DNA of 58,194 bases from a virus (taxonomy: Duplodnaviria; Caudoviricetes): positions 1-58,194 of IMG/VR virus record IMGVR_UViG_3300009466_000003; one strand, given 5' to 3'. Within the stretch, counting starts at the first letter, position 1, and each line of letters starts with the position of its first letter. The notes under the pieces were generated by a model, which saw only the letters and a program-made list of their open reading frames with translations, searched no databases and was not told where the DNA came from. Below are positions 6,190 through 55,558 of this stretch, piece after piece. The position numbers were made by a program, and so were the translations under genes.

Positions 6190-6212
6190 CAACAAACAAC
6201 CTACACACACCT

Positions 6213-18154: not shown

Positions 18155-19242
18155 TGGCAAATGGCATTGCAACAGAGTATCCAAGAATGGCACCTTCTGA
18201 AATAGAAGCTATGGTTCAAGAGCGTGTTGGTGGTGGCGGAGGGATTGGACAAGATTTTCAATCTTGGCAGTATAATATCCCCGAAGGTGGAGGAACGGCA
18301 TACCCCAAAAGCCGCAGGCAGATGCGAATGGAGGCAGAATACCAGCAATATCAATTGAAAGAACTTGAACGCATGAAAGCGTTGCAAGCAATGGAAATGG
18401 CTGAAAAGCAATATGGTCTTCAGCTTGAACAAGAACAGAGGTTGCGAGAAAAACAACAGCTTGATCTTGACAGACAGGAAGAAGTTCAAAACCAAGCTCG
18501 CATGGCCATGGGCGCAATTCTGGGATCGGTTCAGCCTGATGGCCAAAGAACTAGGCCAATCAATATTAATGACGATGATGCCGTCGAAAGACTTCAATCT
18601 GTAATTTATTCCAACCAGCTTGGAATGGAGGATCAGGCTACCAAAGAAGCTGTTGTTGGAATGTTGAATGATGCTCTTCGTGTTCGTGAACGTAAACTGC
18701 AAACATCTCAAGAGCAGGAGTTGGCAGCATCAACACTTTCGGCGCAAACTGGAAAACCAATGAAAGAGTTTGGAGAGTATACGGCAGAAGGCATCTTTCG
18801 TCCCAATTTGAATGCCATTGTCAAAGCCAATGAAGAGTTAAAACAGAAAGAAGAAGCTGCTGCTGAAGAAAAAGAAGTAGCCAAAGAAACCCGAAGGGCG
18901 GAAGCAAGAGAGACTGTTGCCGAGAAAAAATCCAAAGAAACTCAAATTATCGGAATTGATAAAGAGTTGCGTAGGGAAGGTCTTGCTTTGGAAGAAGTTG
19001 CGGCAAATCTTGGATTGCAGCGTGACCAGTCTGGAAGGTTTAATATTGGCGGGCTTTCTGATACTCAGAAAAAAACATTTAGGGCGGCTGAGAATCGCGT
19101 TAGACTTTTGGAACAGGACAAGGCACAATTGCAGGGATTTATGTTTGACACAGAGGCAGATGCCCAAGCGGCAATTGAGGCCAAAAGAGTTCCAAAGGGA
19201 GCCATCATATTTATTAATGGCAAAAAAGCTATCAACCGATAA
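18154..19242 (+). CDS. Putative internal virion (ejection) protein
   Basis: Glu/Gln/Lys coiled coils; C-terminal VPKGAIIFINGK motif. Confidence 0.5.
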   Translation: MANGIATEYPRMAPSEIEAMVQERVGGGGGIGQDFQSWQYNIPEGGGTAYPKSRRQMRMEAEYQQYQLKELERMKALQAMEMAEKQYGLQLEQEQRLREKQQLDLDRQEEVQNQARMAMGAILGSVQPDGQRTRPININDDDAVERLQSVIYSNQLGMEDQATKEAVVGMLNDALRVRERKLQTSQEQELAASTLSAQTGKPMKEFGEYTAEGIFRPNLNAIVKANEELKQKEEAAAEEKEVAKETRRAEARETVAEKKSKETQIIGIDKELRREGLALEEVAANLGLQRDQSGRFNIGGLSDTQKKTFRAAENRVRLLEQDKAQLQGFMFDTEADAQAAIEAKRVPKGAIIFINGKKAINR

Positions 19243-22200: not shown

Positions 22201-25200
22201 CACTGCGCGACATAATTCGTGGATACATTCTTACCGTTGAAAAAATGGGCGCTGCTGAAACATTGTGGGGCACTGGCCCAGATGCTGGAACCACATCTCA
22301 AACACTTAATGTTTCAGTAAAATATCTTGGTGCGCCGATTGGGGCACAAACCAAGGCGCAAAGAGAGGGCGGCAGGTCATATAGAATCCAAAAGAAATCG
22401 AATGTTCAAAAGCTTCTAAGGTATCTAAAGGAAAACGGGATTACAGAGGTTGATGTTCGTCAAGGATCTTATGGAATTAGATCCAGAGGCGGGCAACCAT
22501 ACTATGATGTAATTATCGCAAATTCTGATCTTGAAAAGATCGCCGTTAATAAAAAGCAGCAGGGCAAGCATCCGTCATATTACGGAAACAAGGGATACGA
22601 TCCGACCAACAATGCTTTAACTTGGAACATAAAAAACAAAAAGTTCCCACTTGCCAATGATCCAGATGCAGTTGTCGAATACGGCTTTGAATACGGTCTT
22701 GGTAATATTGATGAGTTCCTTTCCGAAGCACTGAGCAATCCCGAATTCCAAAAAGTCCTCAACGAGATTGAGATGGAACAAGGAAAAACAATTTGGCAAA
22801 CAATTGTTGACGCCATCGCCCGAATCCTAGGTATCGAAGTGAAGGCGGGATCTGTGCTGGATGTGATATCCAGATCGGCATTTGAGTTGGCTACAGAAGG
22901 AGACCTTCTTCTGGCTGGAGGCCGAACCCCGTCCCCCGCCCCCGAAGTAAGAGAATCCCGCAGGGAACCCGCTCCCCTTACCCAACAAGACAGAGAGTAT
23001 CTGGATGCGGTGGAAAGAGGAGATTTGGATGCGGCGTCGAGGGTCGTGGATGCGGCGGCACAGGCTGCTGGAAATGTGACAACGGCTTATAGGTCAAACA
23101 CACAAACAACCACAGTATTCGACACAAAGAATCGGGCCGCTTGGTTCACCGATGATCTGACTGATGCCCAAGACTATGCATCTATCACAGACGTAGATCC
23201 CGAAACAGTAAGCAAATACTATCTCAACACCGACAACTTCGCGTCACTTGATGATCCGCAAATAGCCCGACAGATCAGAGATATCGTTCCGAACATGAAT
23301 GATCTGATGGCGGTGAGTGATGCTATGCCGCAAATCCGCCAACGACTTGGAGAAAGGTATGACGGCATCAAGGTGACCAGCTTTTCGATGGGCTATGAAA
23401 CGACCCACTACAATCCCTTCAAGCCCGAAAGAATCAAATCGGCAGACGCCGTAACCCGCGATGACCAAGGCAACATCATCCCTCCCAGCCAACGCTTCCA
23501 GCCCACAGAAGAAGATATAAGGTATTCCAGACGGGAGCCAGTCCTTCTAAAGAATCGCTTCTACTCACAGCTTGAGCGCACGGTTGCGGCAAAGATGCCA
23601 AACGTCTCGTCTCCCGAACAGCTTAAAGCCATCATCGATCCTTCTAGGGGAAGCGGGGTCAAGCCCGAAGAAATAAAATGGAGCGGTATCACCGAGGCCA
23701 TTGACCGCATTGCCGCCGAAAACAACGGGCGAGTCCCGAAAGAAGCCATCATCAAGTATATGCAGGATGAAGGCAATGTCCGCTTTGAAGAGGTAACTCT
23801 GGCGAGAAAGAAAGTTCCATATACTGGCGGGGAAATCAAGCGAATGCCCAACGGAACATACAAGTTGTCGTTCTTTGGATACGACAGCATGTATACAAAA
23901 CTAGAAGACGCTGAATCTGATCTCCAAAAAATGCGGGAAGGCGCGAGCAGAACAGAAGACGAGACTACTTATTCACAATATCAACTTCCTAATGGCGAAA
24001 ACTATCGTGAGGTTATATTGACAACGGCTTCTGGTGGTTCTTATCAAGATCCCCAAAGATTACGAGACCTATCTCGCGAAAGGCGCGGCATTCAGGAATC
24101 TGGAAGAATGCTTACCAGAGAAGAGTCGAACAGGATTACTGAAATAGACAAAGAAGTCAGAACTCTTGAAGATAGAATTGAGCAAGCAAAGTCTAAATAC
24201 AAATCTCCTCACTTTGCAAATATACCAAACTACGTTGCCCACATGCGTCTGAATGATCGCAAGGATGCAGAAGGAAAAGACGGAACATTTATTGAAGAAA
24301 TTCAATCAGATCTCCACCAAAAAGCCAGAGAGGTTGGATATAAAGACGAAGGCATTGTTCAGCAGAATTTTGTAAGCTGGTTGGCCGCAAACAAAAAAGA
24401 ACTTTCCGAACAAGAAATTCAAACACAATTTAAAACAAGGATTGGTGAGGAAATCCAGCAATGGACTAAAGACCAAGAAATCGCCGCAAAAAATGCCAGT
24501 GCCGTTCCAGATGCGCCGTTCCGCAAGGATTGGTCGCTGCAAATGTTTAAGAGGGCGTTGGAAGAGGCTGTTGCAAGCGGTAAAGATTGGATTGGATGGA
24601 CAACTGGGGATACGCAGGCGGCACGATATGATTTAAGCAAGCAAGCAAAGGCTGTTATCTATAACAAGAATCGAGATGGTTCATTCACTATTACGGTTAG
24701 AGATCTAAACGATGTAAACTCAAAAATAGGAGACTATTCTGCCGAGAAGTTGCCTGATGTTGTCGGCAAAGAGCTTGCGGAAAAAATCGTAAACGATCCA
24801 AACCCAAATGGAATCTTCGCTGGAAACGACCTAAAGATTGGCGGCGAGGGGATGAAAGGATTTTACGACAATATCCTTCCCAAAGAGATTGCCAAGTATG
24901 TCAAGAAGTGGGGCGCAACTGTTGAGAAGTCTGAGATATCGGCGGGCGTTGGTATTAATGCTTGGGTATTTTTAGATGATGATGGTGTGTTTAGAGTCAA
25001 AGATAGAAAAGACGGAAAAGACCCACAGGCTAAAACTTTGGGAGAATTTGATAATCAAACAGACGCCGAAGAATTTGCGCGTATGTATAAGGGGGAAAAT
25101 GTCCCAATCTGGCGCGTCAGCATCACTCCAGAGATGCGCCGAATCATCGAAGAAGAAGGACAGGCTTTATTCTCTCTACAGATGCCCAGCCGTATTGCTG

Positions 25201-28200
25201 GCATGGAACCCGAAGCAGTGACAACCAAGCTGGAGTCTTTGGGATTCGGGCGGGGTGGGATTGTATCAGTGGTCAACGAACCCGATGCCTCCTTTGAAGG
25301 CCGCACCATCATCCGAGACGGGAAAGTAGTAGGTATAGAGCTAAACGCCGCAGCCTTGAGAGACGATGCCGCTGTAGAGCGAGTCTTGAACCATGAGATT
25401 GCCGAATCCGCCAATGCCGATGGGGCGCTTAATCGTTTGGTGGCGGGGTTGACCCCGAAAGAAAGAAAAGAAATCAACGATGCCATCACTAGGTTGGGCT
25501 ACGCAGAGCGGGCTAGAACCGCCGAGGAAGCCGCCAGAGCCGTCGAATTACTAGCCGAGGGATGGAGGGGCAGACGCTGGTTTGAACGTGCTGTGGCGCG
25601 GATTGAGGCATGGGCCAACAAGCTGGGATACAAGCTCACCCGACGAGCCGCCGAATACATCGCCGCCCGCAACATGGCGGAAGTCAACGATAGCTTCAAA
25701 CAGGCATACAACAAATTTATCAATGTGCAGGGAGAGGCTAGGGAAGCGCGAGTTGGCGAGCAAGCTGTCGTTGATGCCGATATGGGCCGCAGATCGCAGA
25801 CCGAACTAACGCCACAAGAAATAGAACAACTAGAAAGCGGCGAGAAAATCCGAGTCTACAGGGCGATGCAAGTCATTGATGGAAAGCTGTATCCGCCGAT
25901 GTCCGCTTTGGTTGGCGGAAAACTCCGCAAGCCCACAGAAATTGGAACATGGGAAAAGGCCGAAGAGCGCCCAGACTTGCTGGATAAGCGGGGCAAATTC
26001 ATTCTTCAGAAGGGCAACAAAGCGACAGTCCCCGCAGCATACAACCCGTATTTCCACACATCTACCTCACCCCTAAATGATCAGTTTTCTTCGGCATACA
26101 AGAGAGACAATCTTGTCACGGTTGAAGTCGAGGTTCCCGCCAGCGAATTGACCAGTGGCTACAAAGCAGATGGCGCAAAGGATGCCGTGGGCGAAGTCCG
26201 CTGGAATGCTGGCCCCGTGAGCAGCAAGCTCCCCGCCGACAAGAAACGCAAAGTTATTCTTTCGCGCTACGCTAAGGTTGTCCGCATTGTTCCCGACAGC
26301 GAGGTTGCTGGAATCATCGCAAATCTTCTTGAGGGTACTAATCTTTCTATTCCAGAAAACACCGTCACCCCGTCACTAAAAGCTGAACTGGAAAAGCAGG
26401 GAATCAGCGTAACCCCGCGACCAGTAAGAGGTGAGGAGATCCGCGAATCCCGCAGAGAAGACGCCATCCCCACCTTCTCCGAGGGAAGCCCCGAAGCATC
26501 CACTCTATCTACTATGGCCTCATCTATGGCCAAGGTGGATGCGGCGTCCGAGGCCAAGCCAAACCCCGAAAACAAACCCACCTACAAGATCAGCGAGATA
26601 GCCTCTGTCTGGATGGATCAAGGGGGAGATGCCCGTCAACTCCAAGACATGGTGGTGGAGTATACCAACCTCACACCAGCCAATGCCAAGAAGGTAGCCA
26701 ATGCCATTGCCAAGCAATACGATATCCAGCAGTCGATTGCTACGGCATTTTTAGAAACTCCCGCTGGCATTTCGGTGGAAGCCCTACCCGAAGGTGTCAC
26801 GCTCCCGAAAGAGGTTGATCCTGATCGTCCGCGCCCCGTCATGCAGCGCCTCTTTGATGTGTTCATGGGAGTCAGGGTAAAACCCGTCAAGATTACTGGT
26901 GATGAAAAGGCATTGCTTAAAAGCCAGATCCGCCTCAAGGCCGCAGCCAATCGTGCGGCAAAGCAGGAGCAGCAACGCACCGCAGACGAGGTTGTTGAGA
27001 TTATCAAGTCCATGGAGCTTCGCGGCCCCGTCCGCCCAAAACAAGCACAGGCTCTAGCCAAACGCGCAGCCAAGGTGATCTGGACAAGCGAGAAATCCAT
27101 GGAGACCTTTGTCGAATACGCCGCCAAGGTGGTGGAGAACGCCAACTACGATGCGGATCTCCGCGAGGCCAAAGCGGCACAGAAACGCGCCAAGGAACTT
27201 TCCAAACAGAAGAAAGTCGCCATGAGTCCGCAGCGTCTAATCCTCCAACAGATTGGTAATGTCGCAGTTAATAAGCTGGATGATCCGCGCATGTTTGCCG
27301 AGATGATCAACTACTACTTGCGTGGATTCAAGGATGTGCGTTCTCCTGACTATGTGGTGGTTCCCGATGAAGAAATCACGGGCTACATATCTCAACTGGA
27401 AAACGAGTCCGTCACAGATCAAGCCGAGGTGGAGCGCGAGACCAACGAAAGGCTTGCCCGCAAATACGACCTTGATCCCAATACCATTCCAGAGTTGATG
27501 AGCCTTATCAACATCATCGAAGAGATTGAAGGCAGGGAGAACCGCGAAGCCTTGGAATCGATCCTTACTGACAAAGCCATCGAAACCCAAGACGGATTGC
27601 GCGGATATGACACAACCGCGCTTACTAACACTCAAAAGAAATTGGTTGAGTCAATGCTCAATGTAGATCTGAAGTCAATCAATACACAAGAGCGGCAAAT
27701 GTTTATCCGCATTGCCAACAATATGATTTACAACAATCAGACCAATGGCGCGGAATACTTTGTGGCTACGGCCAAGGGGCAAGAAAATGCTCGCAAGGCG
27801 GCAAGAGATTCCAAATTGATCCAACGCAACCAAGCTTGGATTCCGCTTATTCCTTCCTTTGGATCTTTGAAGCTGCAAGAAACCCTTCGCAACTTCTCTT
27901 TGGAATTGCAATCAGTGGCCGACACCTTCCGCAATGTATTCGGAAAAGACTTTATGGCCAAGGCTTACGAGATGATGGGGATGCTGGATCTGAATGAGGG
28001 ATTCACCAAAGCCAACAATACCATTGATGAAATCCAAGATCTGATGGCCGAATTTCACCAAGGCAACAAAAAGAAATATGGTGACGCAGCCCGCAACCAA
28101 GACGGCATTCTCTCCGAGGGTGTGGCTGGATTCTTGATCCAAGAATTCCCGTTCAAGGATGAGGCAACCTCAATTCAGCAACGCCGAAACCTGATCAATG

Positions 28201-30185
28201 AATACATCGCCAATGCCCGCGAATCCCGTCAGAAAGATCGTGTAGCCATGGCGGATCGCGTCGAAACCATCCTTAACAAAATCGATGGTGCTTCGGTTCA
28301 AGAGATCTTGAACAATATGAAGCGCGAATACCGCCCGAACTACGATTCACTCATGTGGTACAAGGATGTGCTGTTCCCTAAATACAAAGACTTCCTCAAA
28401 CAATTTGATGAGAACTTCAACGATCAGGCTAACAACTACGATAGCCCGAATTATCTTCCGATTGCCTTTACTTCGGCTGGCCCAGCCTTGGCTCTTACAA
28501 CAGAAGATGTGAGCATTGCCAACTCCATTTCTCTACAGCCCAAACAATCTGTCTACACTATCAAACGCCAAGATTACACCACACTTCCCAAAGACAGGGA
28601 TGGAAATCCTAAAGAAATTGAATTCAATCTTCGTCGCAACGCCTTCAACAGCTTGTCAGATCAGATCAATAAGGCTTACACCAACCCTTCTTGGCAGCAG
28701 ATCTTTGCGTTTATGAAGACTCCAGAATCTATTGAGTTCTTTGGAGACAAAGCTAACCGCGACTTCTTTGTGGATCGCCTCAATAGGTTGCGTGTTTCCA
28801 GAGCAAGGCGCGGATCTGTCAGTGGTGGGGGATTGGAAAAGGCACTTGATTCTTTAAGTATTATTTCCAGAAAACTTGGCACTGGCATTGCCCTTGGTGG
28901 CGCGTTCCAGTGGATCAAGCAGCCCCCAGACCAGCTTCTTACGGCTTTGGGTAGCGGTGGGCGAGGAGATCTTCTGGCTAAAAATATTGCGCCATCTACC
29001 CAGAAAGCGGCCAGAGAACTTCTGAATCTGTTTTCCATTGGACGCCGTGGAGATTCGTCTGCTGGTTACAAATACATCAACCAGATGGAAGGCCATCAAA
29101 GCCGCATGGAGCGTTACTTTAGTGAGAGCAAATGGGAGCAAGCCAAGGAACAGGGCGGGAAGATTGCCGATGTATGGATGGTGGCATTGAAGAAGTCCGA
29201 TTTCATTTCCGCTTCTGCTGCATGGATGACTTACTACGAAGGCGAACTAAACAAGAATGATATCAAGATTGATGACTGGGCCAAAGAAGCCGAGCTTGTC
29301 AAAACCGATCCCGTCAGGCGTCAAGCGGCGGCGTATGCCGAACAAATGACCGACATTTATCAGGGTTCAAGCGACCCGACATCCATGGCTACGTTTGCAC
29401 AAAGCGGTAAAACTGGTTGGGAAAACTTCGTCAAAGCTCTGTTGGTTCCATTCAACTCGTTCGCTGTCCAGCAACGTATGAGGCTTTACTCCGATGCCAG
29501 AGACGCACTCAACGGAACCAGTGGAGGCAAGGGTGGATTGGCTGGAACAATCGGCGGTCTCATCCTTTTTCATACCACGAAACGATTTGTCCTTCCTGTT
29601 ATTTCTGGCGGCACTGCCGCAGTCCTTTACGGAATGCTTGGCGTTGACATGGAAGAACCCGATGAAGAGAAGCAGAAAGAAATGGCTGATAGGAACTGGC
29701 GTCAGTTCTTGGCAGACATCACTGGTAACTTGCTGGTCGGCGGAACCCCGCAAATCGTTGAAAACAGGGTGATCGAATCTTTCAACTACGCTTCTTACAT
29801 GGTTGGTGTGCAGCTTGAGAGCGAAACGGTGATGGATGAAAACGGCGAGATCATGTCCTTTGACAAGTATTCCAAAGAGCGTTCTCCATTCTATCGCTAC
29901 AAGTCTTACGACAATGCCATGAGTCTTGGCATGTTTGAGATTGGATTTGATCAAGCCAAAGAGGCGGCGCTTCAAACCAAGATGCTCATGGATCGTGAAG
30001 AGATGGAGATGTATACGCCCGAAGAGCAGCGTCTCCTCTACTTCTCTGCACTTTCGGAGTGGCTGTATCTTATGCGCCTCAATGACACGGACTTCGCCCG
30101 TATCGTGAAGAAGGCCCGCCGCGACATGATCAAAGCAGCCGAAGAGCGCGAGAAAGAACTAGCCCGCATCCGCGCTGGACGCTAG
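19242..30185 (+). CDS. 3647-aa large polyvalent (ejected) protein with ART-like and zincin domains
   Basis: Gly/Ala hydrophobic N-terminus; ART-like H...GRGFY domain; HEIIH...EFLSEA metallopeptidase; ART-PolyVal-like AYR...WFTDD...YDGI...IKSAD domain; helical C-terminus. Confidence 0.75.
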   Translation: MPIEYLDDIEEDITEAADTTPVEQPPVAGVSEPVAPEPSGEFGGRIEYIEEEPLEIEPPRDNSWDTLRGFEVSMRQVPQLAYGVAGLVGETAEQLTGYGESLRDWGFRGYQDWAESMEPISKETDDVTVAWQKAKEGDIGALVDWAQYGIGYALGQLGETAAIAVLGGIAGGAAGAAGGPTAVPAAAGGAVVAAAGKTGFKALAKNLVEKAISAQAKNIVKKQAAKEGIELTGEQLAKRAQQEAIKRQAGREIGSNAAVFANAIGMQLGAIYGSAEEKAREEGRELTGLDLARIWGSGIATGGLEGVVDKFGLDLLKGKFAEALPAGRLAGAAVAGPIGLVGEAATEAVQTVGERFGAGRELLSDEAINEYINASALGGIGGGVIGGAGGFISGNPKENAAAKAKVSSEANKDIAPATAETVARQADAVIAETVQETPEQRVARLQEESAAAAGIELEEEGEGGVEPTVPVTPPVAPTPEGAVAPVEPVVTPEVAEPQPAAEVAPTSISESEQIKNIKDKGVTAIHFSRTPMQLEKGVDISKIKGAYPEESVFGRGFYAMEPADESSWRSASRFQLGDYRNEVKLSPKNPIIISPDTVKKYGYDEIKNRVDQGGYDAIIVSGWNPEYDAGIEKRLNELWSPVFPEGRTSGQFLNTKEYDAAISRATEEITGLSRKDYEAISKSGWDQNQVFIPPDIASDIVSKPEVTPPAEVAPEVTPNLEPLRRVARAEQAPEDIPSLVEAGLVEVYKDQPVITEAGIAQLPEAERPRLTPEARKIQIDTGANEVVAEAISKNLRIGVDQVGANVRMPAGWTLVEDIYVPPAKQEVAKAGQPEQAVTPPTLKTKYTDNNLENVSFPRTSGQPNQARQALEVISKGSSPYAQLAQEILNAASTNPEISFAISNSKFTRSTPAQDRGRFKNRSFYEAAYRTIAMNPNQAGDTRIAVHEIIHAIIAHKLPNQISSSKLKGKKYKNVLDKAIADKSLPKPLRDIIRGYILTVEKMGAAETLWGTGPDAGTTSQTLNVSVKYLGAPIGAQTKAQREGGRSYRIQKKSNVQKLLRYLKENGITEVDVRQGSYGIRSRGGQPYYDVIIANSDLEKIAVNKKQQGKHPSYYGNKGYDPTNNALTWNIKNKKFPLANDPDAVVEYGFEYGLGNIDEFLSEALSNPEFQKVLNEIEMEQGKTIWQTIVDAIARILGIEVKAGSVLDVISRSAFELATEGDLLLAGGRTPSPAPEVRESRREPAPLTQQDREYLDAVERGDLDAASRVVDAAAQAAGNVTTAYRSNTQTTTVFDTKNRAAWFTDDLTDAQDYASITDVDPETVSKYYLNTDNFASLDDPQIARQIRDIVPNMNDLMAVSDAMPQIRQRLGERYDGIKVTSFSMGYETTHYNPFKPERIKSADAVTRDDQGNIIPPSQRFQPTEEDIRYSRREPVLLKNRFYSQLERTVAAKMPNVSSPEQLKAIIDPSRGSGVKPEEIKWSGITEAIDRIAAENNGRVPKEAIIKYMQDEGNVRFEEVTLARKKVPYTGGEIKRMPNGTYKLSFFGYDSMYTKLEDAESDLQKMREGASRTEDETTYSQYQLPNGENYREVILTTASGGSYQDPQRLRDLSRERRGIQESGRMLTREESNRITEIDKEVRTLEDRIEQAKSKYKSPHFANIPNYVAHMRLNDRKDAEGKDGTFIEEIQSDLHQKAREVGYKDEGIVQQNFVSWLAANKKELSEQEIQTQFKTRIGEEIQQWTKDQEIAAKNASAVPDAPFRKDWSLQMFKRALEEAVASGKDWIGWTTGDTQAARYDLSKQAKAVIYNKNRDGSFTITVRDLNDVNSKIGDYSAEKLPDVVGKELAEKIVNDPNPNGIFAGNDLKIGGEGMKGFYDNILPKEIAKYVKKWGATVEKSEISAGVGINAWVFLDDDGVFRVKDRKDGKDPQAKTLGEFDNQTDAEEFARMYKGENVPIWRVSITPEMRRIIEEEGQALFSLQMPSRIAGMEPEAVTTKLESLGFGRGGIVSVVNEPDASFEGRTIIRDGKVVGIELNAAALRDDAAVERVLNHEIAESANADGALNRLVAGLTPKERKEINDAITRLGYAERARTAEEAARAVELLAEGWRGRRWFERAVARIEAWANKLGYKLTRRAAEYIAARNMAEVNDSFKQAYNKFINVQGEAREARVGEQAVVDADMGRRSQTELTPQEIEQLESGEKIRVYRAMQVIDGKLYPPMSALVGGKLRKPTEIGTWEKAEERPDLLDKRGKFILQKGNKATVPAAYNPYFHTSTSPLNDQFSSAYKRDNLVTVEVEVPASELTSGYKADGAKDAVGEVRWNAGPVSSKLPADKKRKVILSRYAKVVRIVPDSEVAGIIANLLEGTNLSIPENTVTPSLKAELEKQGISVTPRPVRGEEIRESRREDAIPTFSEGSPEASTLSTMASSMAKVDAASEAKPNPENKPTYKISEIASVWMDQGGDARQLQDMVVEYTNLTPANAKKVANAIAKQYDIQQSIATAFLETPAGISVEALPEGVTLPKEVDPDRPRPVMQRLFDVFMGVRVKPVKITGDEKALLKSQIRLKAAANRAAKQEQQRTADEVVEIIKSMELRGPVRPKQAQALAKRAAKVIWTSEKSMETFVEYAAKVVENANYDADLREAKAAQKRAKELSKQKKVAMSPQRLILQQIGNVAVNKLDDPRMFAEMINYYLRGFKDVRSPDYVVVPDEEITGYISQLENESVTDQAEVERETNERLARKYDLDPNTIPELMSLINIIEEIEGRENREALESILTDKAIETQDGLRGYDTTALTNTQKKLVESMLNVDLKSINTQERQMFIRIANNMIYNNQTNGAEYFVATAKGQENARKAARDSKLIQRNQAWIPLIPSFGSLKLQETLRNFSLELQSVADTFRNVFGKDFMAKAYEMMGMLDLNEGFTKANNTIDEIQDLMAEFHQGNKKKYGDAARNQDGILSEGVAGFLIQEFPFKDEATSIQQRRNLINEYIANARESRQKDRVAMADRVETILNKIDGASVQEILNNMKREYRPNYDSLMWYKDVLFPKYKDFLKQFDENFNDQANNYDSPNYLPIAFTSAGPALALTTEDVSIANSISLQPKQSVYTIKRQDYTTLPKDRDGNPKEIEFNLRRNAFNSLSDQINKAYTNPSWQQIFAFMKTPESIEFFGDKANRDFFVDRLNRLRVSRARRGSVSGGGLEKALDSLSIISRKLGTGIALGGAFQWIKQPPDQLLTALGSGGRGDLLAKNIAPSTQKAARELLNLFSIGRRGDSSAGYKYINQMEGHQSRMERYFSESKWEQAKEQGGKIADVWMVALKKSDFISASAAWMTYYEGELNKNDIKIDDWAKEAELVKTDPVRRQAAAYAEQMTDIYQGSSDPTSMATFAQSGKTGWENFVKALLVPFNSFAVQQRMRLYSDARDALNGTSGGKGGLAGTIGGLILFHTTKRFVLPVISGGTAAVLYGMLGVDMEEPDEEKQKEMADRNWRQFLADITGNLLVGGTPQIVENRVIESFNYASYMVGVQLESETVMDENGEIMSFDKYSKERSPFYRYKSYDNAMSLGMFEIGFDQAKEAALQTKMLMDREEMEMYTPEEQRLLYFSALSEWLYLMRLNDTDFARIVKKARRDMIKAAEEREKELARIRAGR

Positions 30186-33739: not shown

Positions 33740-34140
33740 TTGATAAATGAAATAACTTTGTTGACCCAGACCTCTGCGTCTTCCATAAGATCATGGTAGT
33801 AGACAATCATCCTGTTGGGGACAGGCGAGATAATCCATTTAGAAACAAACTCTCCGTAGAAACATCGTTTATTCGGCCAAGTAGGGGCTATCTGCTCCCA
33901 GCTTTTAATGCAATCATCAATCACTCTGCATTGCACGATGTGGAGGTATTCGGGATTCTTTGGTAAGTCCAATTCAAAGTCGTGGGTCTTTTGAGCGGTA
34001 ATTTCTGGGGAATTCTCCAAGGTCTTCCCGTTGCTGTGGTATTCACTGTAAACAAATTCATCCCCAAGTCTTTCTTGGAGCATGGACACTAGCCAATGGT
34101 GGCCCGATCTTGGAAAGGTGACAAATCTGGTTCGCTTCAC
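33736..34140 (-). CDS. Sulfotransferase-like protein
   Basis: FVTFPRSGHHWL PAPS-binding loop, KTHD, VYYHDLMED. Confidence 0.75.
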   Translation of the reverse strand: MKRTRFVTFPRSGHHWLVSMLQERLGDEFVYSEYHSNGKTLENSPEITAQKTHDFELDLPKNPEYLHIVQCRVIDDCIKSWEQIAPTWPNKRCFYGEFVSKWIISPVPNRMIVYYHDLMEDAEVWVNKVISFIK

Positions 34141-35717
34141 AGAGACTTGAGCGTATCCAATAACGGCATCAAGTCAACCATGGAGGTGCGGCGTTTGATC
34201 TCCGCTTCCAGCATGGACTTGTATATACTGCGTATATCCAGATCGGCTATATCTTGGTGGGATATCCCACTGATTGCCGCTTCCGCATTGTTATCCAGTT
34301 GAGAAATAACCTTGGCTATGGAGGCGGGGTTTCCTGCCTCGTAATCTGCTGCCATGATGGTAGAAATGTCATCGTCCGCCAACAAATCCCAGTTGTAGGC
34401 GTTCGCTGGCTCCTTGCCGCAAAGTAGAAGATGGGCTACCAACTGCTTCCAAGACTCTCCTTTCTGCTCCCCGTAGCGGGTTTCGGTAGGTAAAGCCCGA
34501 TGGCCCCCTCCCATGGCAGCTTGTTTCTTTAGCTGAGAAGACTTGATACCAAGCAGCTTCGCACACCGATTAGCCAATTCGTCCCGCTCAATGCCGTCTT
34601 CCAAGACCGACAAGGCTTGCCCGACCTTGCCCATGGCAATCTGTTTATCCTCAATTGATTTTTTATCCAGTGATTCAGCCAGTGCTTCGGGATAGAGCTT
34701 TGCTTCTGAGATAAGACTCGCAAGATCCCCGCCCGAAACCAAGAAGGAATCAGGATCTCCCTCTGGCAGCATGACAGCCCTGACCCTCACCCCAAGGCTT
34801 GCCAGCCCCGCAAAAGCTTTAAATGACGCCTCCTTGCCCGCTTTGTCCCCGTCGAATACCAAGACCGCCTCGCCGCATAAACGCCTCACTGTGGCCCCGT
34901 GGGAAGCGGTAAACCCTGTCCCCAAAGGTGCAATAGCGTTGGTAATCCCCGACAAATGGCATCTGATTGTATCAATCTGACCCTCGACAATGACCGCTTG
35001 CCCCGAATCAATGATGGATCGTTTGGCTTTATCCAGCCCGTAGAGCAGCTTGCCCTTGTGGAATATGGGAGACTCTGGACTATTGAGATATTTAGCAGGG
35101 TGGTTGTCGGTGGTGCGTCCGCTGAATCCAACCAGTGTTCCCGACTCATCCGCTATCCCAAACATGATACGGTTGGTAAAACGTAGGGTTCCGTTGTCGT
35201 AGGTCAAACCCGACAGGGTATGATGGGAGGCACTACCAGACAAAGCGTAGCTTTTGGGCGCATATCCGATCTTCCAATCCTCGCAGATCTCCCGATTGAA
35301 TCCACGTTCCTTGAGGATCTTTCGGGCTTCCGACCCCTCCTTGCTTAAAAGCAAACTGAAAAATTGTTGGTGGGCTTTGTAGACTACCGATACCAAGCCC
35401 CTTCGTATCTTGTCGGCCTCACTTTCCTGTTCCTCTATGGCTATCCCCGCCTTGGCCCCAAGCTTGCGGACAGCCTCTGGAAAGTTGATCTTGTCCATCT
35501 CCATGACGAAGCGGAAGACCGACCCTCCTGCCCCGCAACCAAAGCAGTGGTAGCTCCCCTTGTCATCATTGATAAAAAAAGAAGGAGTCCTCTCCCGATG
35601 GAAAGGACAAAGCGCAACGAATCGTCCGCCCCTCCTTTTCACAGGAAAGTAATCTCCTGCTACTTCAGAGAGACGGACGTTCGCCGCTATCGAAGCAATG
35701 GTGGAGTCAGAGATCAA
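34137..35717 (-). CDS. dnaG: DNA primase, DnaG type
   Basis: CPFH...CFGC zinc finger, KYLNSPE, TOPRIM VIVEGQID and FDGDKAG. Confidence 0.95.
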   Translation of the reverse strand: MISDSTIASIAANVRLSEVAGDYFPVKRRGGRFVALCPFHRERTPSFFINDDKGSYHCFGCGAGGSVFRFVMEMDKINFPEAVRKLGAKAGIAIEEQESEADKIRRGLVSVVYKAHQQFFSLLLSKEGSEARKILKERGFNREICEDWKIGYAPKSYALSGSASHHTLSGLTYDNGTLRFTNRIMFGIADESGTLVGFSGRTTDNHPAKYLNSPESPIFHKGKLLYGLDKAKRSIIDSGQAVIVEGQIDTIRCHLSGITNAIAPLGTGFTASHGATVRRLCGEAVLVFDGDKAGKEASFKAFAGLASLGVRVRAVMLPEGDPDSFLVSGGDLASLISEAKLYPEALAESLDKKSIEDKQIAMGKVGQALSVLEDGIERDELANRCAKLLGIKSSQLKKQAAMGGGHRALPTETRYGEQKGESWKQLVAHLLLCGKEPANAYNWDLLADDDISTIMAADYEAGNPASIAKVISQLDNNAEAAISGISHQDIADLDIRSIYKSMLEAEIKRRTSMVDLMPLLDTLKSL

Positions 35718-37468: not shown

Positions 37469-37722
37469 GGTGGTATTTGATTAGACAGTGTGTTAGGGGT
37501 TTTGTTCAATGAAATCTTCATGGTCTATCCACGATTTTCCTGCCGAAGAAGGCGAGCAACCCGCGCCCGAAGCAGACAAACCTTGGGTTCCGCCGCCCCT
37601 AACCAATAAGGAAAAGCAAGCCCTCAAGTTTGCCATGATTCGGAACAGACCTGACCGCAAGGGACGGGGAGCCAGACGGCGAGCAGGGGAGAAGAAGTGG
37701 GCAACAAAAGGCAAATAGTTTT

Positions 37723-46508: not shown

Positions 46509-46715
46509 TTAGACGCCGTGGCGCTGCAAATGTTCAAAGTTTTTTGCCAGCCACCACATAGCCTCCCGATCATTGCCAACATGCCTAGCCCATTCGGCGT
46601 TATCGCTCACCACCCCGTAATCTTGGAGGATGTTCATTATCTCGCGCTCGTCGGCAAAACGGGCCTTGATCCAGTTTTCCAGCTTATTGCCAGTAGAAGA
46701 AGGCATAGACACCAT
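46509..46715 (-). CDS. Hypothetical protein
   Basis: MNILQDYGVVSDNA core; start uncertain. Confidence 0.5.
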   Translation of the reverse strand: MVSMPSSTGNKLENWIKARFADEREIMNILQDYGVVSDNAEWARHVGNDREAMWWLAKNFEHLQRHGV

Positions 46716-47905: not shown

Positions 47906-48352
47906 TCAAGAGAAAATCACACGGACTTCGGCCTCGTCAAACATCTGTAAAGCGGCTTTGAAGGAATCTGCCCACCGCTCGTAGGTGTCCAGATGGGCAT
48001 TGAACGGGCAATAAACATCTTTGATTCCAGCTTGAATGATGGAGCCTGCACAATGAGCGCAAGGCTGGAAGGGCCAGACAAAAATAGAGTAGTCTTTAAG
48101 TGGTTCTTTGGCCGATAGTATTGCGTTAACTTCGGCGTGAATTGTGTAGAGCAGTTTGGTGTCGCGATTTGCGATACGATCATGTGTGTCCTCCACCCCA
48201 CGGGGGAAGCCGTTGAATCCCACCGATGCGATGGTTCGGTCTGGGCGGACGATCACCGCACCGACTTGGGACGAAGCATCCTTTGACCATGTAGCGATTT
48301 CTTTGGCCAGCTTGCCAAACCGTGCTTGCCACTTGCTGTCAATTGTTGCCAT
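47906..48352 (-). CDS. dCMP deaminase
   Basis: WSKD...VGAVIV, GFNGFPRG, HAEVNA, PCAHC. Confidence 0.9.
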   Translation of the reverse strand: MATIDSKWQARFGKLAKEIATWSKDASSQVGAVIVRPDRTIASVGFNGFPRGVEDTHDRIANRDTKLLYTIHAEVNAILSAKEPLKDYSIFVWPFQPCAHCAGSIIQAGIKDVYCPFNAHLDTYERWADSFKAALQMFDEAEVRVIFS

Positions 48353-48605
48353 CGATTTCAAATCCTTGGTTTTCCATTTTCTTGACCATATTGGCAATCA
48401 TGGTGGATTTCAACTTGCGCTCGTAGCTATCTTTAGCTCTCCACATCTTGACTTCCGAAATTAGTAGATCAATTGAGATAATCGGGCTTTCTCCTTCAAA
48501 TGTCTGGTATTCAGCGATTAACTGCTTTATCTCATTAAGTTGGCTGCACGAAGGACAGTTGGTAAATTCTTTGCCATTAAGCCCGTTGTTCATTAAGTCA
48601 ATCAT
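48339..48605 (-). CDS. Hypothetical protein
   Basis: ORF track; CPSC. Confidence 0.5.
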   Translation of the reverse strand: MIDLMNNGLNGKEFTNCPSCSQLNEIKQLIAEYQTFEGESPIISIDLLISEVKMWRAKDSYERKLKSTMIANMVKKMENQGFEIDGNN

Positions 48606-49856: not shown

Positions 49857-50165
49857 TCACTTGATGATTCCCTCTTGGCGGGCGATGGCCTCAATCTGGC
49901 TCACATACTCGCGGGTGCAGTTGAATTGCTCGGCTACGGCAGCAAAGTTCATTTCGGGGTTGGCCATGAGATAGCCAAGGACTTTGAAAGCCCGACCTCC
50001 ATGCATGCGCCTCTTGGTAGTCTTCTTGCGCTTGGCCCGAATCCCATTCTTACGCAATGCCTGTGCCATGGCTCCGTATTTGACTCCATGCTTTTCGGCA
50101 AGTTCGCCAATGGTGATTTCGGGGTTTTGTTCGATTTCTTGTGGTAGTAAGGATGCTTTGATCAT
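49857..50165 (-). CDS. Double-HTH DNA-binding protein
   Basis: ITIGELAEKHGVKYGAM and MNFAAVAEQFNCTREYVSQI. Confidence 0.7.
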   Translation of the reverse strand: MIKASLLPQEIEQNPEITIGELAEKHGVKYGAMAQALRKNGIRAKRKKTTKRRMHGGRAFKVLGYLMANPEMNFAAVAEQFNCTREYVSQIEAIARQEGIIK

Positions 50166-50182: not shown

Positions 50183-50213
50183 ACAACAGTAGCTGTTGTT
50201 CAATCGCCGTCAA
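50183..50213 (-). promoter_or_regulatory. Promoter with a palindromic operator over the -10
   Basis: TTGACG-16-TACTGT; ACAACAG-tag-CTGTTGT at 50183-50199. Confidence 0.55.
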
Positions 50214-50500
50214 ATAATATTATTGGAGAGGCGTGGAGACTTTCGTTTCCGCGCCTTTCGCGGTTTACGGGCCTTCCTCTGCTCCTTGTGGAACAATTTG
50301 TGGCACACCTTACATAGGCAGATCAGATCGTCCAAGTGGTTGAGTTCATCTCCTTGGTGTTCGTAGGTGCGGTGGTGGGCTTGGAGTTCCAGAGGGCTAT
50401 TGCATACCCCACATCTCCAGCCGTAGCGTTTCTTCACCAGTCGGCTTACTTCTTTCCAATAAGGCGTTCTCAAGTAGGATCTATAAGATTCTTTATCCAC
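50210..50500 (-). CDS. HNH endonuclease
   Basis: RCGVC...AHHRTY...LICLCKVCH. Confidence 0.85.
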   Translation of the reverse strand: MDKESYRSYLRTPYWKEVSRLVKKRYGWRCGVCNSPLELQAHHRTYEHQGDELNHLDDLICLCKVCHKLFHKEQRKARKPRKARKRKSPRLSNNII

Positions 50501-50520
50501 AGAGAAATACTACTCTCTTG

Positions 50521-50549
50521 TTGACAGTGTGGCCACCCTTAGTTATTTT
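50521..50549 (+). promoter_or_regulatory. Promoter P1 of the ncRNA locus
   Basis: TTGACA-17-TATTTT. Confidence 0.7.
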
Positions 50550-50554
50550 GGCGC

Positions 50555-50629
50555 AGGCGATTTGGGTGCGGTCTCTAGGAGCGGATGTTTCTATCAAGAC
50601 ATCAGTGAGGGGCCGCACCCTCTTTTTTT
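50555..50629 (+). ncRNA. Putative sRNA-1 (~75 nt): stem with large loop plus U-tract
   Basis: GGGTGCGGTCTCT/AGGGGCCGCACCC stem followed by TCTTTTTTT. Confidence 0.6.
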
Positions 50630-50633
50630 GATA

Positions 50634-50662
50634 TTGACTTATTTTTGAACGCCTGATAGGTT
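50634..50662 (+). promoter_or_regulatory. Promoter P2 of the ncRNA locus
   Basis: TTGACT-17-TAGGTT with extended -10 TG. Confidence 0.65.
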
Positions 50663-50668
50663 GCCGTG

Positions 50669-51390
50669 GTCTTGATAGATTCAGACATCCGCTCACGGCG
50701 AGCTAGACATATTGTAGCCGAATCTCCAGCGCAGGTATGCAAGGGTCACACCGCCGAACGTTGGAATATCCGAACCAAGCCTCGCCCGCTTGGTAATCCA
50801 GAAATAGTCTGGTAAAGCGACAGGGACATGCCCTGTGGAGTGCATCGACGTTATTGGGTCATCAGAATGGCAGCCTCGGAGCCTAGACGTTGGTGGTAGG
50901 GCTGAAGCAACTCATCTCGGAGGGATGAATACTTCGACTTTTTACAAAACTCCTGCCCCGTAGCTGGGGCGGAGTGTGTGGAGGACATCGCAATCTATCT
51001 GGATGGATTAATCTCCGACTATGCGGCGTTCGGGCGAACTGCGTAAAGAAGCCGCTATACTAGGCGGGGCGCACGGCTTTAGCCCCGCCGAATATCCCCC
51101 CAAAGAAAAAAGAAGAAAAAAGATTGAACGCCCCGAAGGGGCTATGGTCTATTACTCCATGGACAATTTAAGGGGGAGACTAGGTTCGACGCGCAAAACC
51201 AAGCGCGGACTCGGCTGCAATGCCGACTCCTCCACCAATTCGGAGGGGATCATTGAGGGCAAGATGAGTGTAAACTCCTTGAGCGACCTGAGTCCTCTCC
51301 CATTTTTTTTGGAGGCGGGGAAGACCCGACTGCAAAGTCGAAAGCTTCAAAGGCTGGGGGGCTAATGAAGTTGCGCCACCTCGCCTCCAA
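50669..51390 (+). ncRNA. Putative long structured RNA-2 (or long leader/origin transcript)
   Basis: Series of at least eight hairpins, no convincing ORF; 3' end unknown. Confidence 0.45.
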
Positions 51391-51398
51391 TTCTCTTT

Positions 51399-51752
51399 AT
51401 GAATAGACAAGAAGCAATACAACTACAGATTGATGACATCCTTGACAGTTTCGATTTTCAGGCGGTTATGAAGTCATTGGAAGTCTATAAGTCCATGGAG
51501 CGGGGTTATCCGTCCGATTGGTTCCTAGATGATGAGCCGTTTGAACCCGCGATTCGGGCAGCGGCTCGCGATTGCATGAAAGCGGCCATCAAAGAGGGCT
51601 ATGCTGGTCATAGCTACTTTGAAGCCCGCTTTACTGAAGGAGAAGACGAAGAAGGCCCGTGGGTCAGAATCACTCTTAATTTCGGGCTTCATTCTTACAA
51701 TGACGGAGTATCTTATGAAAAAACTACTACTACTACCCCTGTTACTGAGTAA
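51399..51752 (+). CDS. Hypothetical phage protein
   Basis: IDDILDSFDFQAV motif. Confidence 0.65.
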   Translation: MNRQEAIQLQIDDILDSFDFQAVMKSLEVYKSMERGYPSDWFLDDEPFEPAIRAAARDCMKAAIKEGYAGHSYFEARFTEGEDEEGPWVRITLNFGLHSYNDGVSYEKTTTTTPVTE

Positions 51753-54253: not shown

Positions 54254-55558
54254 ATGCACGAAGTCATCTACGAACCCTCGGCGGAAACCGCAATACTGTC
54301 CTGCCTCTGCCACGCGCCGACAGAGGACCAAAGGGAAATCTTACTTTCCATCAAGGAGGATCATTTCTACCTTCAGGAAAATAAAATTATCTTTCGGGCA
54401 ATCATGCGATGTATCGCCAAGGGGATGCAGGCCGATATCATCAATGTGAAGGCCGAAATCGAAGCGGCCAACGAATACGACATCATCGGGGGTGAACAAA
54501 AGATTGCAGAAGTTGCAACTTCATGTGTGGCCCACAACAATTGGAAACGCTACTACCCCAAGCTGGAAGAAGCCCGTTACAGAAGGTCATTGGAGTATCT
54601 GGCCAATGACATGGTTCACAAGGCCCGTGACCGCGAACTCAAGATTGACGAACTCAAGAACTGGTCGGAAACCACCGTAATGAAGGCCGACTATGAGATG
54701 GATGACGGGGACAAGCTATCCATCATTAGCGCCCTAGACCGCGCTGCCCAGAACATCGAATCCACCATTGCGGGTAAGCCCTGTGTCGGCATCAAGACGG
54801 GACTGGTTCCAGTAGATGATCTTTTAATCTTCGGCATGCGAGGAGGAGATATGGTAGTGGTCGCCGCCCGTCCAGCAGTTGGAAAGACCAGTAGCGCCAT
54901 GCAGATTGCAGAGCATGTGGCTCTCAACCAGCAAAAACGGGTATTGGTGTTTTCTCTTGAGATGACCAGTGTTGCTCTCATGGAGCGACTGATCCGCTCC
55001 CGTGCGCGTGTGCGAGCGGCTGACATTCTGGCTAGGACGGTGACCCCGCTACAAAAGAAAGCACTGGCAGATGCCACAATGGAAATCCAAGGCTCCAAGA
55101 TCTTGTGTGATGATAGTTCGGCCAAGTCCATCGGCTATCTCAAGGCAGTAGCTCGCCGCGCCCACCAGCGCGAACCACTCGACCTCATCATTATCGACTA
55201 CCTCCAGCTTGTCAGAGGGGACAGTCGGCGCGGAAAAGAAAACCGTGTGTGCGAGGTGGAAGAGATTAGCGGCGGCATAAAAGACCTAGCCAAGACGCTC
55301 AAGGTTCCTGTTCTGGTTCTGGCTCAACTCAATCGCGACCCCGACAAGCGCGGAGGACGCCCAAGTCTGGCCGACCTCAAGGGATCAAGCGCCATTGAGA
55401 TGGATGCCGATATTGTCATCATGCTCCACAGCGAAGAAGCCGCCGATCACGGGCAAAATCCCACCATGGAATTTATCGTAGCCAAGCATCGTGAAGGCCC
55501 GACAGGTGTGGCCAACATGGTCTTTAACAAGGCTATTACCCGATTTGAGGTGGCGTAG
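54254..55558 (+). CDS. dnaB: Replicative DNA helicase
   Basis: AARPAVGKT Walker A, FSLEM, IIIDYLQL, LAQLNR, DLKGSSAIEMDAD, AKHREGPTG. Confidence 0.95.
   Translation: MHEVIYEPSAETAILSCLCHAPTEDQREILLSIKEDHFYLQENKIIFRAIMRCIAKGMQADIINVKAEIEAANEYDIIGGEQKIAEVATSCVAHNNWKRYYPKLEEARYRRSLEYLANDMVHKARDRELKIDELKNWSETTVMKADYEMDDGDKLSIISALDRAAQNIESTIAGKPCVGIKTGLVPVDDLLIFGMRGGDMVVVAARPAVGKTSSAMQIAEHVALNQQKRVLVFSLEMTSVALMERLIRSRARVRAADILARTVTPLQKKALADATMEIQGSKILCDDSSAKSIGYLKAVARRAHQREPLDLIIIDYLQLVRGDSRRGKENRVCEVEEISGGIKDLAKTLKVPVLVLAQLNRDPDKRGGRPSLADLKGSSAIEMDADIVIMLHSEEAADHGQNPTMEFIVAKHREGPTGVANMVFNKAITRFEVA

Follow-up and report, generated by a model that had tools for sequence, protein, structure and literature searches.

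The interval 50669-51390 of the virus record IMGVR_UViG_3300009466_000003 is rich in hairpins and lies where two gene blocks diverge, which raises the question of what kind of RNA is made there and to what end. The window analysed here is that whole IMG/VR record, 58,194 bp of linear DNA from a poorly annotated tailed phage, ~80% complete. An initial annotation had read the interval as a single non-coding transcript of ~700 nt, either an undescribed large phage noncoding RNA (ncRNA) or an R-loop primer of the ColE1 RNA II kind, controlled by a small RNA (sRNA-1) encoded just upstream. Our analysis confirms the observation itself and supports its interpretation in part. We think it probable that two transcription units, rather than one 700-nt RNA, make up the interval, as a composite RNA island on the plus strand. 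Comparison with relatives supports unit A as a highly structured ncRNA of ~430 nt (the core RNA), ~300 nt of which are conserved; unit B would start at a phage-type promoter and carry a tag-less miniature transfer-messenger RNA (mini-tmRNA) within a reading frame kept free of stops. The large-ncRNA reading and its link to sRNA-1 are supported, and the ColE1-like primer is not.

All eight stems of the initial annotation, and its G6 run, were found where it had placed them. Seven of these stems are perfectly complementary and the eighth, CAGCCT/GGGCTG, is closed by a U·G wobble; the stem at 50949-50975 reads ACUCC..GCCCC/GGGGC..GGAGU. Folding of the 722-nt stretch against 20 shuffles per strand gave z values of -2.98 (plus strand) and -2.42 (minus strand). 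Because the stretch as a whole barely beats its shuffles, the significance of the stems rests on relatives, through conservation and covariation. Relatives were collected with the 117-aa protein encoded 3' of the gap (6 viral loci), with one motif each from the conserved 3' part (29 loci) and the 5' part (44 loci) of the gap, and with a pattern for the tmRNA-like piece (13 metagenome loci); counts of promoter motifs and of the mini-tmRNA refer to a family set of 72 loci. The sequence-bearing runs are lake, freshwater, marsh, oyster and aquatic metagenomes, and the INPHARED phage collection has no DNA match. The RNA island is kept across related uncultured phages of lake, marsh and estuary.

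An alignment of 12 relatives gives the core RNA 107 consensus pairs in 18 helices, with double changes at 28 pairs. In this alignment 94.9% of the cells are paired, versus 37-46% after the 3' partners have been slid along by 1-3 columns; the slid versions have 3-9 double-change pairs, and none of 500 shuffles matches the observed value in four of five measures. The stems at 50774-50794, 50798-50812, 50820-50836, 50949-50975 and 51063-51089 are helices 6, 7, 8, 13 and 17 of the consensus, and all of them carry compensatory changes. A more diverse set, of 20 sequences in 14 clusters at 92% identity, retains 50 common pairs, 26 with double changes versus 1-8 when slid; here all five measures exceed 500 of 500 shuffles, and further pair types, counted conservatively, number 58 versus 48.6 (0 of 500 shuffles). 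The slid controls and the pair-type numbers speak against an artefact, and the compensatory pairs, a sign of the structural covariation that the initial annotation proposed to look for, lie far above the slid controls. Invariant U·G pairs in the core point to the plus strand as the RNA strand. Single-stranded motifs of the core domain are also invariant, for example AGGUAUGCAAGG..CCGCCG, AUCCG, UCGGAGCC and GCCCC..GGGGCG. The 3' part, up to ~51100, is replaced or has diverged in several lineages; its two hairpins are GCGGC..GCCGC and GGCGGGGC..GCCCCGCC (51063-51089), and helices 16 and 17, which belong to it, have four compensatory pairs each. Two long-range contacts were considered and rejected. 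Closure of the 5' end onto 50983-50999, also seen in the minimum free energy fold, is absent from the consensus structure, and pairing of the C6 run with the G6 run fails in the L014, L020, L026 lineage, where the C-run is replaced and G6 retained.

As judged from its reading frames, the core RNA region is not protein-coding. Open reading frames (ORFs) in this interval are out of frame between lineages, single-base insertions and deletions (indels) are common, and long ORFs are open on both strands simultaneously, so the conserved protein coding that the initial annotation named as a counter-indication was looked for and not seen. The 49-codon GTG ORF (50666-50815), which it had named as a weaker alternative target, was seen in just two of the 12 relatives (L004 and the window itself). 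A type I toxin-antitoxin system made of sRNA-1 and a small ORF was likewise rejected, there being no conserved small ORF. Searches of Rfam at gathering score gave no match in the window or in six relatives; at E≤10, the region 50400-51500 gave three weak matches, none relevant to the core RNA, and three further permissive searches (E≤5 or E≤10) on relatives gave none. A large, structured plus-strand RNA that is Rfam-negative and strongly covarying agrees with the first of the two earlier proposals, and the core RNA appears to be a new family among the loosely defined large, ornate phage RNAs. Among 30 relatives it is present in 20, absent in seven that keep the second unit, and could not be judged in three.

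The candidate promoter of the core RNA, P2, conforms to the pattern TTGAC[TC]-N-TAGG[GT]T, retained in 12 relatives; a simple promoter consensus scan did not list it. Upstream of P2 lies sRNA-1, whose own candidate promoter, P1, is outside the flagged interval and yet part of the system, the same P1/sRNA arrangement occurring in eight relatives. The predicted sRNA-1 forms a long hairpin (50564-50576 with 50608-50620) followed by U7, and its inner loop region (50579-50600) is complementary to 50669-50694, that is, to two blocks in the 5' hairpin of the core RNA, GUCUUGAUAGA and ACAUCCGCUC. The two blocks differ widely between relatives yet stay complementary, in at least nine versions counted by eye. 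When 16 lineages were cross-tested, in a noisy comparison that used long windows, the cognate target ranked 1-2 of 16 in 10 of 11 sRNA-bearing lineages (L029 ranked 4), and 5th to 16th in five lineages that have a divergent helix-turn-helix (HTH)-like gene instead of the sRNA. The proposed link between sRNA-1 and the long RNA is in this way strengthened by a two-block base-pairing that covaries. The pairing could take place either in trans or inside a read-through transcript. In the five exceptional lineages (L172, L173, L181, L194, L178) the divergent gene adjoins the core RNA promoter and its reverse translation resembles a small HTH regulator, which suggests that there protein control replaces antisense control of the core RNA.

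The second unit is marked by the motif TTGAAC-N18-TCTAT, which occurs 80 times, at 65 of the 72 family loci, with a spacer that is always 18 nt although 16-20 were permitted. The window contains six matches with at most one mismatch versus 1.0 expected (0 of 100 shuffles). One of them, at 46509-46537 on the minus strand, is followed by an ATG at 46502 that opens a 160-aa ORF, with the same geometry as at 51124-51152; a further motif of this type lies at 37481-37509 (minus strand). At other sites the motif precedes the ATG of real genes by a few bases; an A-tract is often found upstream of it, and an ATG 5-7 nt downstream. We take it to resemble promoters of extracytoplasmic function (ECF) sigma factors more than sigma-70 promoters; a small HTH protein encoded at 49857-50165 has a weak Pfam match to Sigma70_r4. 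The pattern argues for P3 as a putative phage promoter type giving mRNAs that start at or near their AUG, and suggests that leaderless mRNAs are widespread in this phage group. The GCCCC/GGGGC hairpin (51130-51142) falls in the P3 spacer and is not retained in diverged relatives. It was rejected as a terminator, since the stem is lost there and the flanking hexamers and their spacing are retained. The single ~700-nt transcript of the initial annotation gives way at this point, the phage-type promoter at 51124-51152 being the predicted start of a separate unit with the mini-tmRNA and the stop-free leader.

The mini-tmRNA is a 66-nt element consisting of a tRNA-like domain only. Its acceptor stem (51172-51178 with 51227-51233) is GGGGGAG/CUCCUCC and includes G3·U70; ACUA follows, then GGUUCGAC at 51183-51190. 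A 4-bp hairpin (51191-51206) replaces the entire mRNA and pseudoknot domain, and the 3' half consists of GGAC (51207-51210), a T arm with a 5-bp stem and a 6-nt loop (51211-51226), and ACCA (51234-51237). Set against the Rfam consensus, the element has the anatomy of a tmRNA: the G3·U70 acceptor and ACCA, a D-loop analogue ..GGNUUCGAC, and GGAC with the T arm; its 5' layout matches the 5' consensus of two Rfam tmRNA families. Over 51160-51250 (91 nt), RF04321 (tmRNA_permuted) scores 21.9 bits (E 0.003), below its gathering threshold of 47, and RF01849 scores 12.5 bits against a threshold of 50. ARAGORN reports no tmRNA in the window. No resume codon, tag frame or pseudoknot of an mRNA-like domain was found, the 4-bp hairpin being all that lies between UUCGAC and GGAC. 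Two other candidate readings were tried. In the first Rfam matches the T arm was paired with a downstream GGAGGCG..CCCGAC, as in a permuted, two-piece tmRNA; this was dropped because the downstream sequence is window-specific and the upstream GGGGGAG gives a perfect G3·U70 stem. A tag frame (ANEV..) after the G6 run is not conserved and is shifted by single-base indels.

Variation among relatives indicates that the mini-tmRNA is under selection. It is present as 12 variants in 28 of the 72 loci; 13 of the 28 were retrieved by its own pattern, and among 30 loci retrieved without that pattern eight carry it. Compared with L003, the window has gained exactly these 66 nt. Of 11 variants, three close the T stem with C-G and eight with U-A, and none has a mismatch there; the closing loop varies from 5 to 8 nt, and ACCA is encoded in nine of 12 variants. 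The classical GGAUUCGAC, together with a T-loop core of UUCGA, occurs in two diverged variants. The fold has a z value of -3.83 in the window and of -3.3 to -4.1 across the elements tested. A loose form of the pattern matched at least 118 stretches in viral contigs; among the matches listed, those left after filtering all belong to this phage group. In L178 a tRNA-Met gene fills the slot that the mini-tmRNA occupies in its near relative L173, and in that lineage no AUG follows the motif. With a complete domain, a short closing helix, no tag and signs of selection, the element has the features of the tRNA-like domain (TLD)-only, or coding-sequence-less, class, and by this anatomy is a new member of the already known type found in Mycobacterium phage DS6A. 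Genes for tRNA-Met (CAU) occur in the islands of relatives at 2643-2717 (+) in L003, 4374-4449 (-) in L029, 3756-3830 (-) in L191 and 5091-5165 (+) in L178; those of L003 and L029 lie upstream of the sRNA promoter.

The mini-tmRNA stands inside a leader reading frame whose AUG comes 7 nt after the P3 motif and is predicted to be at or near the RNA 5' end. In 32 of 32 distinct sequences this frame is free of stops to at most 69 nt before the main AUG (51399) of the first rightward gene; where it is not joined in frame to the next gene, its end falls within -69 to +38 of that AUG. Stops average 0.375 in the leader frame versus 4.66 and 3.84 in the other two, and in cassettes of 383-582 nt the counts per frame are, for example, 0, 8 and 9; 0, 7 and 11; or 1, 10 and 11. 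Variable sites are spread evenly over the codon positions (55/49/57, 15/11/12 and 8/5/8), with no third-position excess, and over the last 70 nt of the frame single-base indels between relatives put it out of register. It thus seems that the leader frame is maintained open although it codes for no conserved protein, and the label "non-coding", which holds for the core RNA, is too simple for 51159-51365. Because the main AUG has no Shine-Dalgarno sequence upstream, as read from the sequence, ribosomes would have to traverse the leader to reach it. In L184, L191, L192 and L195 the leader frame is fused in frame to a secreted-protein gene (MKYILL...RKIANE), whose signal peptide would be internal if translation begins at the first AUG.

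Between the AUG and the three-helix element, whole modules are present or absent among relatives, and the cassette measures 16 nt, 82 nt, 156 nt (the window) or 327-385 nt. Besides the mini-tmRNA, two RNA modules lie in the leader of the window. The first, known from 26 distinct copies, is a hairpin with a stem of GGAGGGGAU and GUCCUCUCC, invariant CAUUGAGGG and GCGACCUGA, and a variable tip. At least eight contiguous basal pairs are present in 23 of 26 copies, with 16 different flank pairs, and the internal CAYUGAGGG and GCGACCYRA are fixed while the basal stem varies freely; by eye, the hairpin at 51244-51302 fits a kink-turn (K-turn). The second is a three-helix element that ends 8 nt before the AUG of the first gene. 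Its helix P1 is a 12-bp pairing of 51309-51320 with 51379-51390, P2 is a GNRA hairpin (51327-51340), and P3 pairs 51344-51349 with 51366-51371, with an inner stem that closes a loop inside the G6 run (51356-51361). Across 25 distinct sequences it has 26 pairs, four with double changes, and G·U in 18 of 25 sequences at one pair of helix P1 points again to the plus strand as the RNA strand. The cassettes of 327-385 nt (L004, L006, L014, L020, L029, L021, L009, L016, L023, L025) contain two more long structured modules, whose stems are fully swapped between relatives, e.g., GUGUAGA/UCUACAC versus GCACGGA/UCCGUGC, and which have no Rfam match.

Table 1. Positions of the predicted features of the RNA island, of contigs from RNA libraries and of the neighbouring genes, numbered along the window.
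Feature	Position	Strand	Basis or remark
P1, sigma-70-like promoter TTGACA-17 nt-TATTTT, for sRNA-1	50521..50549	+	consensus scan
sRNA-1, approximate ends	50556..50630	+	terminator-like site, inverted repeats, covarying complementarity
P2, sigma-70-like promoter TTGACT-17 nt-TAGGTT, for core RNA	50635..50663	+	read from sequence
5' hairpin of core RNA, target of sRNA-1	50669..50694	+	complementarity
Conserved multi-helix core domain	50700..50985	+	two alignments, RNAalifold, pair counts
Less conserved 3' part of core RNA	50990..51102	+	two GC-rich hairpins, C6 run
A-rich tract and P3 (TTGAAC 51124-51129, 18 nt, TCTAT 51148-51152)	51103..51152	+	motif statistics
Leader reading frame, 68 codons (AUG 51159, UAA 51363-51365)	51159..51365	+	stop counts
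Tag-less mini-tmRNA, tRNA-like domain only, 66 nt	51172..51237	+	sequence reading, Rfam, variants
K-turn-like hairpin module (hairpin 51244-51302)	51244..51311	+	26 distinct copies
Three-helix element	51309..51390	+	covariation, inverted repeat
First gene of rightward block, 117 aa, no family match	51399..51752	+	Pfam, PHROGs scans
Gap of ~900 bp	between minus-strand block ending 50500 and plus-strand block starting 51399		gene layout
DnaG	34137-35717	-	Pfam/PHROGs scans
DnaB	54254-55558		Pfam/PHROGs scans
Contig X19, 100% identical	50555-50705		a study other than that of X15 and X17
Contig X17, 100% identical	50569-50749		same study as X15, different run
Contig X15, 100% identical	50653-50861		one study
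Contig X16	50851-51025		DNase-treated marsh library
Contig of a relative	51155-51300		DNase-treated marsh library

From these features we would derive the following scheme. P2 would drive the ~430-nt ncRNA of unit A, from 50669 to ~51100, with sRNA-1 pairing to its 5' hairpin; this pairing most likely controls how the ncRNA folds or how stable it is, acting in trans or, in read-through RNA from P1, as a long hairpin. The ncRNA itself may be a trans-acting accessory phage RNA, GOLLD/ROOL-like in general kind, i.e., large, ornate, phage-borne and next to tRNA-like genes. Unit B would start at P3 (51124-51152), with its RNA beginning at or near AUG 51159, and ribosomes are predicted to read the leader through the three RNA modules and to end 34 nt before AUG 51399. 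In doing so they may unfold the three-helix element and, by translational coupling, allow initiation at the AUG at 51399, which has no Shine-Dalgarno sequence. The mini-tmRNA, we propose, is cut out by RNase P and 3' trimming, charged by alanyl-tRNA synthetase via G3·U70 and A73, and bound by SmpB; by analogy with DS6A, it could then compete with the host tmRNA and damp trans-translation during infection. More tentatively still, as an idea we hold doubtful, RNA genes would lie inside a translated leaderless message, and RNase P excision and ribosome transit would compete on the same RNA; excision takes away the sole ribosome entry site. If so, the phage toggles between making an inhibitor of trans-translation and translating an early secreted-protein operon, and alongside stands a new class of ornate phage RNA under its own antisense RNA.

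The RNA evidence on this scheme consists of assembled contigs from RNA libraries of three studies (Table 1), which do not give ends, strand, processing sites or level and come from libraries that may hold DNA. The study behind X15 and X17 may be the one from which the DNA itself came, and stretches of the interval outside the contigs were given no weight as evidence. The relative's contig has the same compensatory pair in the T stem and a 3-nt deletion in the closing loop. Several points weigh against the two-unit reading or parts of it. P2 and P3 are consensus or motif calls, and P3 misfits the -10 consensus of sigma-70. There is no terminator to be seen between unit A and P3, and unit A may therefore read into unit B; contigs X17 and X19 bridge the U-tract/terminator of sRNA-1 and P2, so that sRNA-1 and the core RNA may be one transcript. 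The covarying structures were derived from the same alignments in which the pairs were then counted, and the sequences are related. The resemblance of the core RNA to GOLLD and ROOL lies in context and size only. As for the mini-tmRNA, the standard tmRNA model, RF00023, matches nothing in the genome and the permuted models remain below their gathering scores; the T loop has 6 nt, not 7, in 11 variants (7 nt in L181), two copies (L158, L159) have decayed to G·U pairs or are truncated, and there is no SmpB gene among the 52 ORFs scanned with PHROGs.

Some of these points would be accommodated by one long cis-acting leader, in which a transcript from P2 or P1 runs through the interval into the operon and the structured RNA acts as an attenuator or sensor. 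In such a leader, the pairing of sRNA-1 would refold the RNA, and internal terminators such as the hairpin with U8 (51244-51311) would stop or pass the polymerase. The CI immunity RNA of phage P4 is the comparison system here, beside P1 c4/ant. The lack of an evident intrinsic terminator between core RNA and P3 and the contigs that span the sRNA terminator and P2 favour this model, as does the U8 after the K-turn-like hairpin, which in this phage makes a terminator-like structure before the first gene. The order of elements also fits: sRNA-1 pairs in two blocks and lies upstream on the same strand, the latter as for c4 in the P1 immI operon (PMC8198154). However, the seven of 30 relatives without core RNA and sRNA retain P3, leader and operon; the U-run after the hairpin module is not conserved, being absent from L004 and L006; P3, a recurring motif of promoter type, has an A-tract and an AUG spacing of its own; the Rfam C4 family does not match; and a 300-nt domain with invariant loops exceeds what an attenuator usually needs. 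We consider a single cis-acting leader unlikely.

The second proposal of the initial annotation was a ColE1-like origin, with the core RNA as R-loop primer, sRNA-1 as RNA I and G6 helping the hybrid to persist. It has in its favour that an sRNA can pair with the 5' end of a long RNA that is folded and non-coding, that G6 and C6 runs are present, and that the site is at the divergence of two gene blocks. Also in its favour, and as that annotation had stated, DnaG and DnaB are encoded, and no initiator or polymerase was recovered among the 24 ORFs compared with Pfam and the 52 compared with PHROGs; the record being ~80% complete, missing replication genes prove little. No positive support for an origin emerged, in the form of iterons, an excess of DnaA boxes, an AT-rich dip or a skew switch. 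GC skew, which the initial annotation had proposed to profile, shows no switch, GC content stays at 0.46-0.56 across the gap, and direct repeats in the interval form no family beyond two-copy chance matches. DnaA boxes number 15 versus 12.2 expected; the one perfect 9-mer (50493-50501) falls at the beginning of the minus-strand HNH gene (50210-50500), and relatives with this gene keep it. Within the three-helix element, a conserved hairpin has the G6 run as its loop, inside the stop-free leader frame. In ColE1, RNA I is transcribed from the strand opposite RNA II, whereas the promoter-like and terminator-like sites of sRNA-1 are on the plus strand upstream of P2, and five lineages carry the divergent HTH-like gene in place of the sRNA. 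An accessory RNA fits better than an essential origin because the core RNA is missing in seven of 30 relatives. An origin of this kind is, in our judgment, very improbable.

Equally hard to sustain is the view that 51021 or 51159 to 51365 is an ordinary small protein gene whose likeness to tmRNA is accidental. The frame is open in all 32 relatives, the closing-loop indels of the mini-tmRNA come in 3-nt steps and the frame is fused to the secreted-protein gene in four lineages, as a protein gene would have it. Against this stand the even distribution of variable sites over codon positions, the frame shifts in the last 70 nt, stems that swap both strands while the encoded residues change, the absence of a Pfam or PHROGs match, and the L173/L178 lineage, in which the same promoter precedes the mini-tmRNA or tRNA-Met with no AUG. 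The least credible reading is that the tmRNA-like piece is an attachment-site copy of the 3' end of host ssrA left by integration, as many temperate elements do integrate into ssrA and carry its 3' end (PMC11915505). Here the acceptor stem has both its strands and a short hairpin closes it, compensatory change is seen among the 12 variants, and no integrase is found among the ORFs scanned with Pfam and PHROGs. The 31-nt 3' half has no exact match in one genome each from 185,579 species, and the 5' 19-mer gave three chance matches, none a tmRNA, so that no bacterial tmRNA with the same ends is at hand and a remnant is therefore disfavoured.

Recognisable genes of the record are few in the Pfam and PHROGs scans and include a holin, an endolysin, a dCMP deaminase, a RusA-like protein, HNH proteins and a terminase-like ORF. 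The position of the first gene is occupied in many relatives by one for a secreted protein. The structural region contains a single ORF of 3647 aa (19242-30185, plus strand). An ORF at 6150-6815 (plus strand) resembles nucleoside 2-deoxyribosyltransferase over its N-terminal half and, over its C-terminal half, PHROGs families annotated as phosphofructokinase. This ORF and the dCMP deaminase (47906-48397) may point to salvage or modification of nucleotides.

The two-unit reading matters for several reasons. Large, intricate RNAs to which no function is assigned are rare in bacteria and phages, and any new class may reveal new RNA biochemistry; the core RNA offers handles in its dedicated, covarying antisense partner, in natural relatives that do without it, and in the neighbouring slot that swaps tRNA-like modules. 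The mini-tmRNA would be a small natural addition to the few tag-less tmRNAs published so far and support the idea that phages commonly interfere with ribosome rescue. The leader arrangement is the least expected part and would permit a direct test of translation and RNA processing sharing one transcript; a stop-free, non-conserved leader running through RNA modules was not met in the literature on tmRNA, GOLLD/ROOL and c4, in which it was not searched for specifically. For annotation, the 114-codon ORF at 51021-51365 should not be called a protein gene.

Comparison with known systems places each part of the island. GOLLD (RF01998) and ROOL (RF03087) are described as large multi-helix ncRNAs that have no assigned function, are frequent in phages and prophages, adjoin tRNA genes and are perhaps co-transcribed with them (PMC5737381). 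The core RNA is like them in context and size only; it is smaller, with ~300 nt conserved and ~430 nt in total, and has a dedicated antisense sRNA partner. Neither covariance model matches at E≤10 over 50400-51500, or in the relatives at gathering score or at E≤5 or E≤10. To ColE1 RNA I/RNA II the likeness is that of a small RNA complementary to the 5' end of a long folded ncRNA; here, the small RNA is upstream on the same strand, there are no origin features, and the long RNA is missing in seven of 30 relatives. The c4 RNA of phages P1 and P7, like the CI RNA of P4, shares with sRNA-1 a place upstream of its target on the same strand; P1 c4 reportedly makes contact with its target through two separate blocks, as sRNA-1 would. 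In the P1 immI region c4, icd and ant form one operon, with c4 upstream on the strand of its target (PMC8198154). Unlike c4, which targets a ribosome-binding site, sRNA-1 would target the 5' hairpin of a structured ncRNA, and it has promoter-like and terminator-like sites of its own. The C4 family (RF01695) gives no match at E≤10 over 50400-51500, sRNA-1 included.

The mini-tmRNA has its known counterpart in phage DS6A. Hudson, Lau and Williams list the DS6A form as "TLD only" and report strong inhibition of tmRNA by a molecule of similar kind, which may act through titration of SmpB (PMC4131195). A 2025 database paper likewise reports inhibition of the endogenous tmRNA of E. coli by the DS6A form, and describes plastid forms of ~65 bp as well (PMC11915505). 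We located the DS6A element at JN698994 28478-28560 (tmRNA Website tmID 11587), where RF00023 scores 43.2 bits; a covariance model of four near-identical mini-tmRNA copies, too narrow for the purpose, missed it. Both elements are phage-encoded, lack a tag frame and combine a 7-bp acceptor with G3·U70, a T arm and a D-loop analogue whose last bases are UCGAC; where a tmRNA would have its message and pseudoknots, each has a short closed helix. The mini-tmRNA differs in its length (66 versus 83 nt), its 6-nt T loop, its encoded CCA and its lack of an RF00023 match. Unlike the DS6A element, it is a swappable module, set inside a stop-free leader frame behind what appears to be a phage-type promoter.

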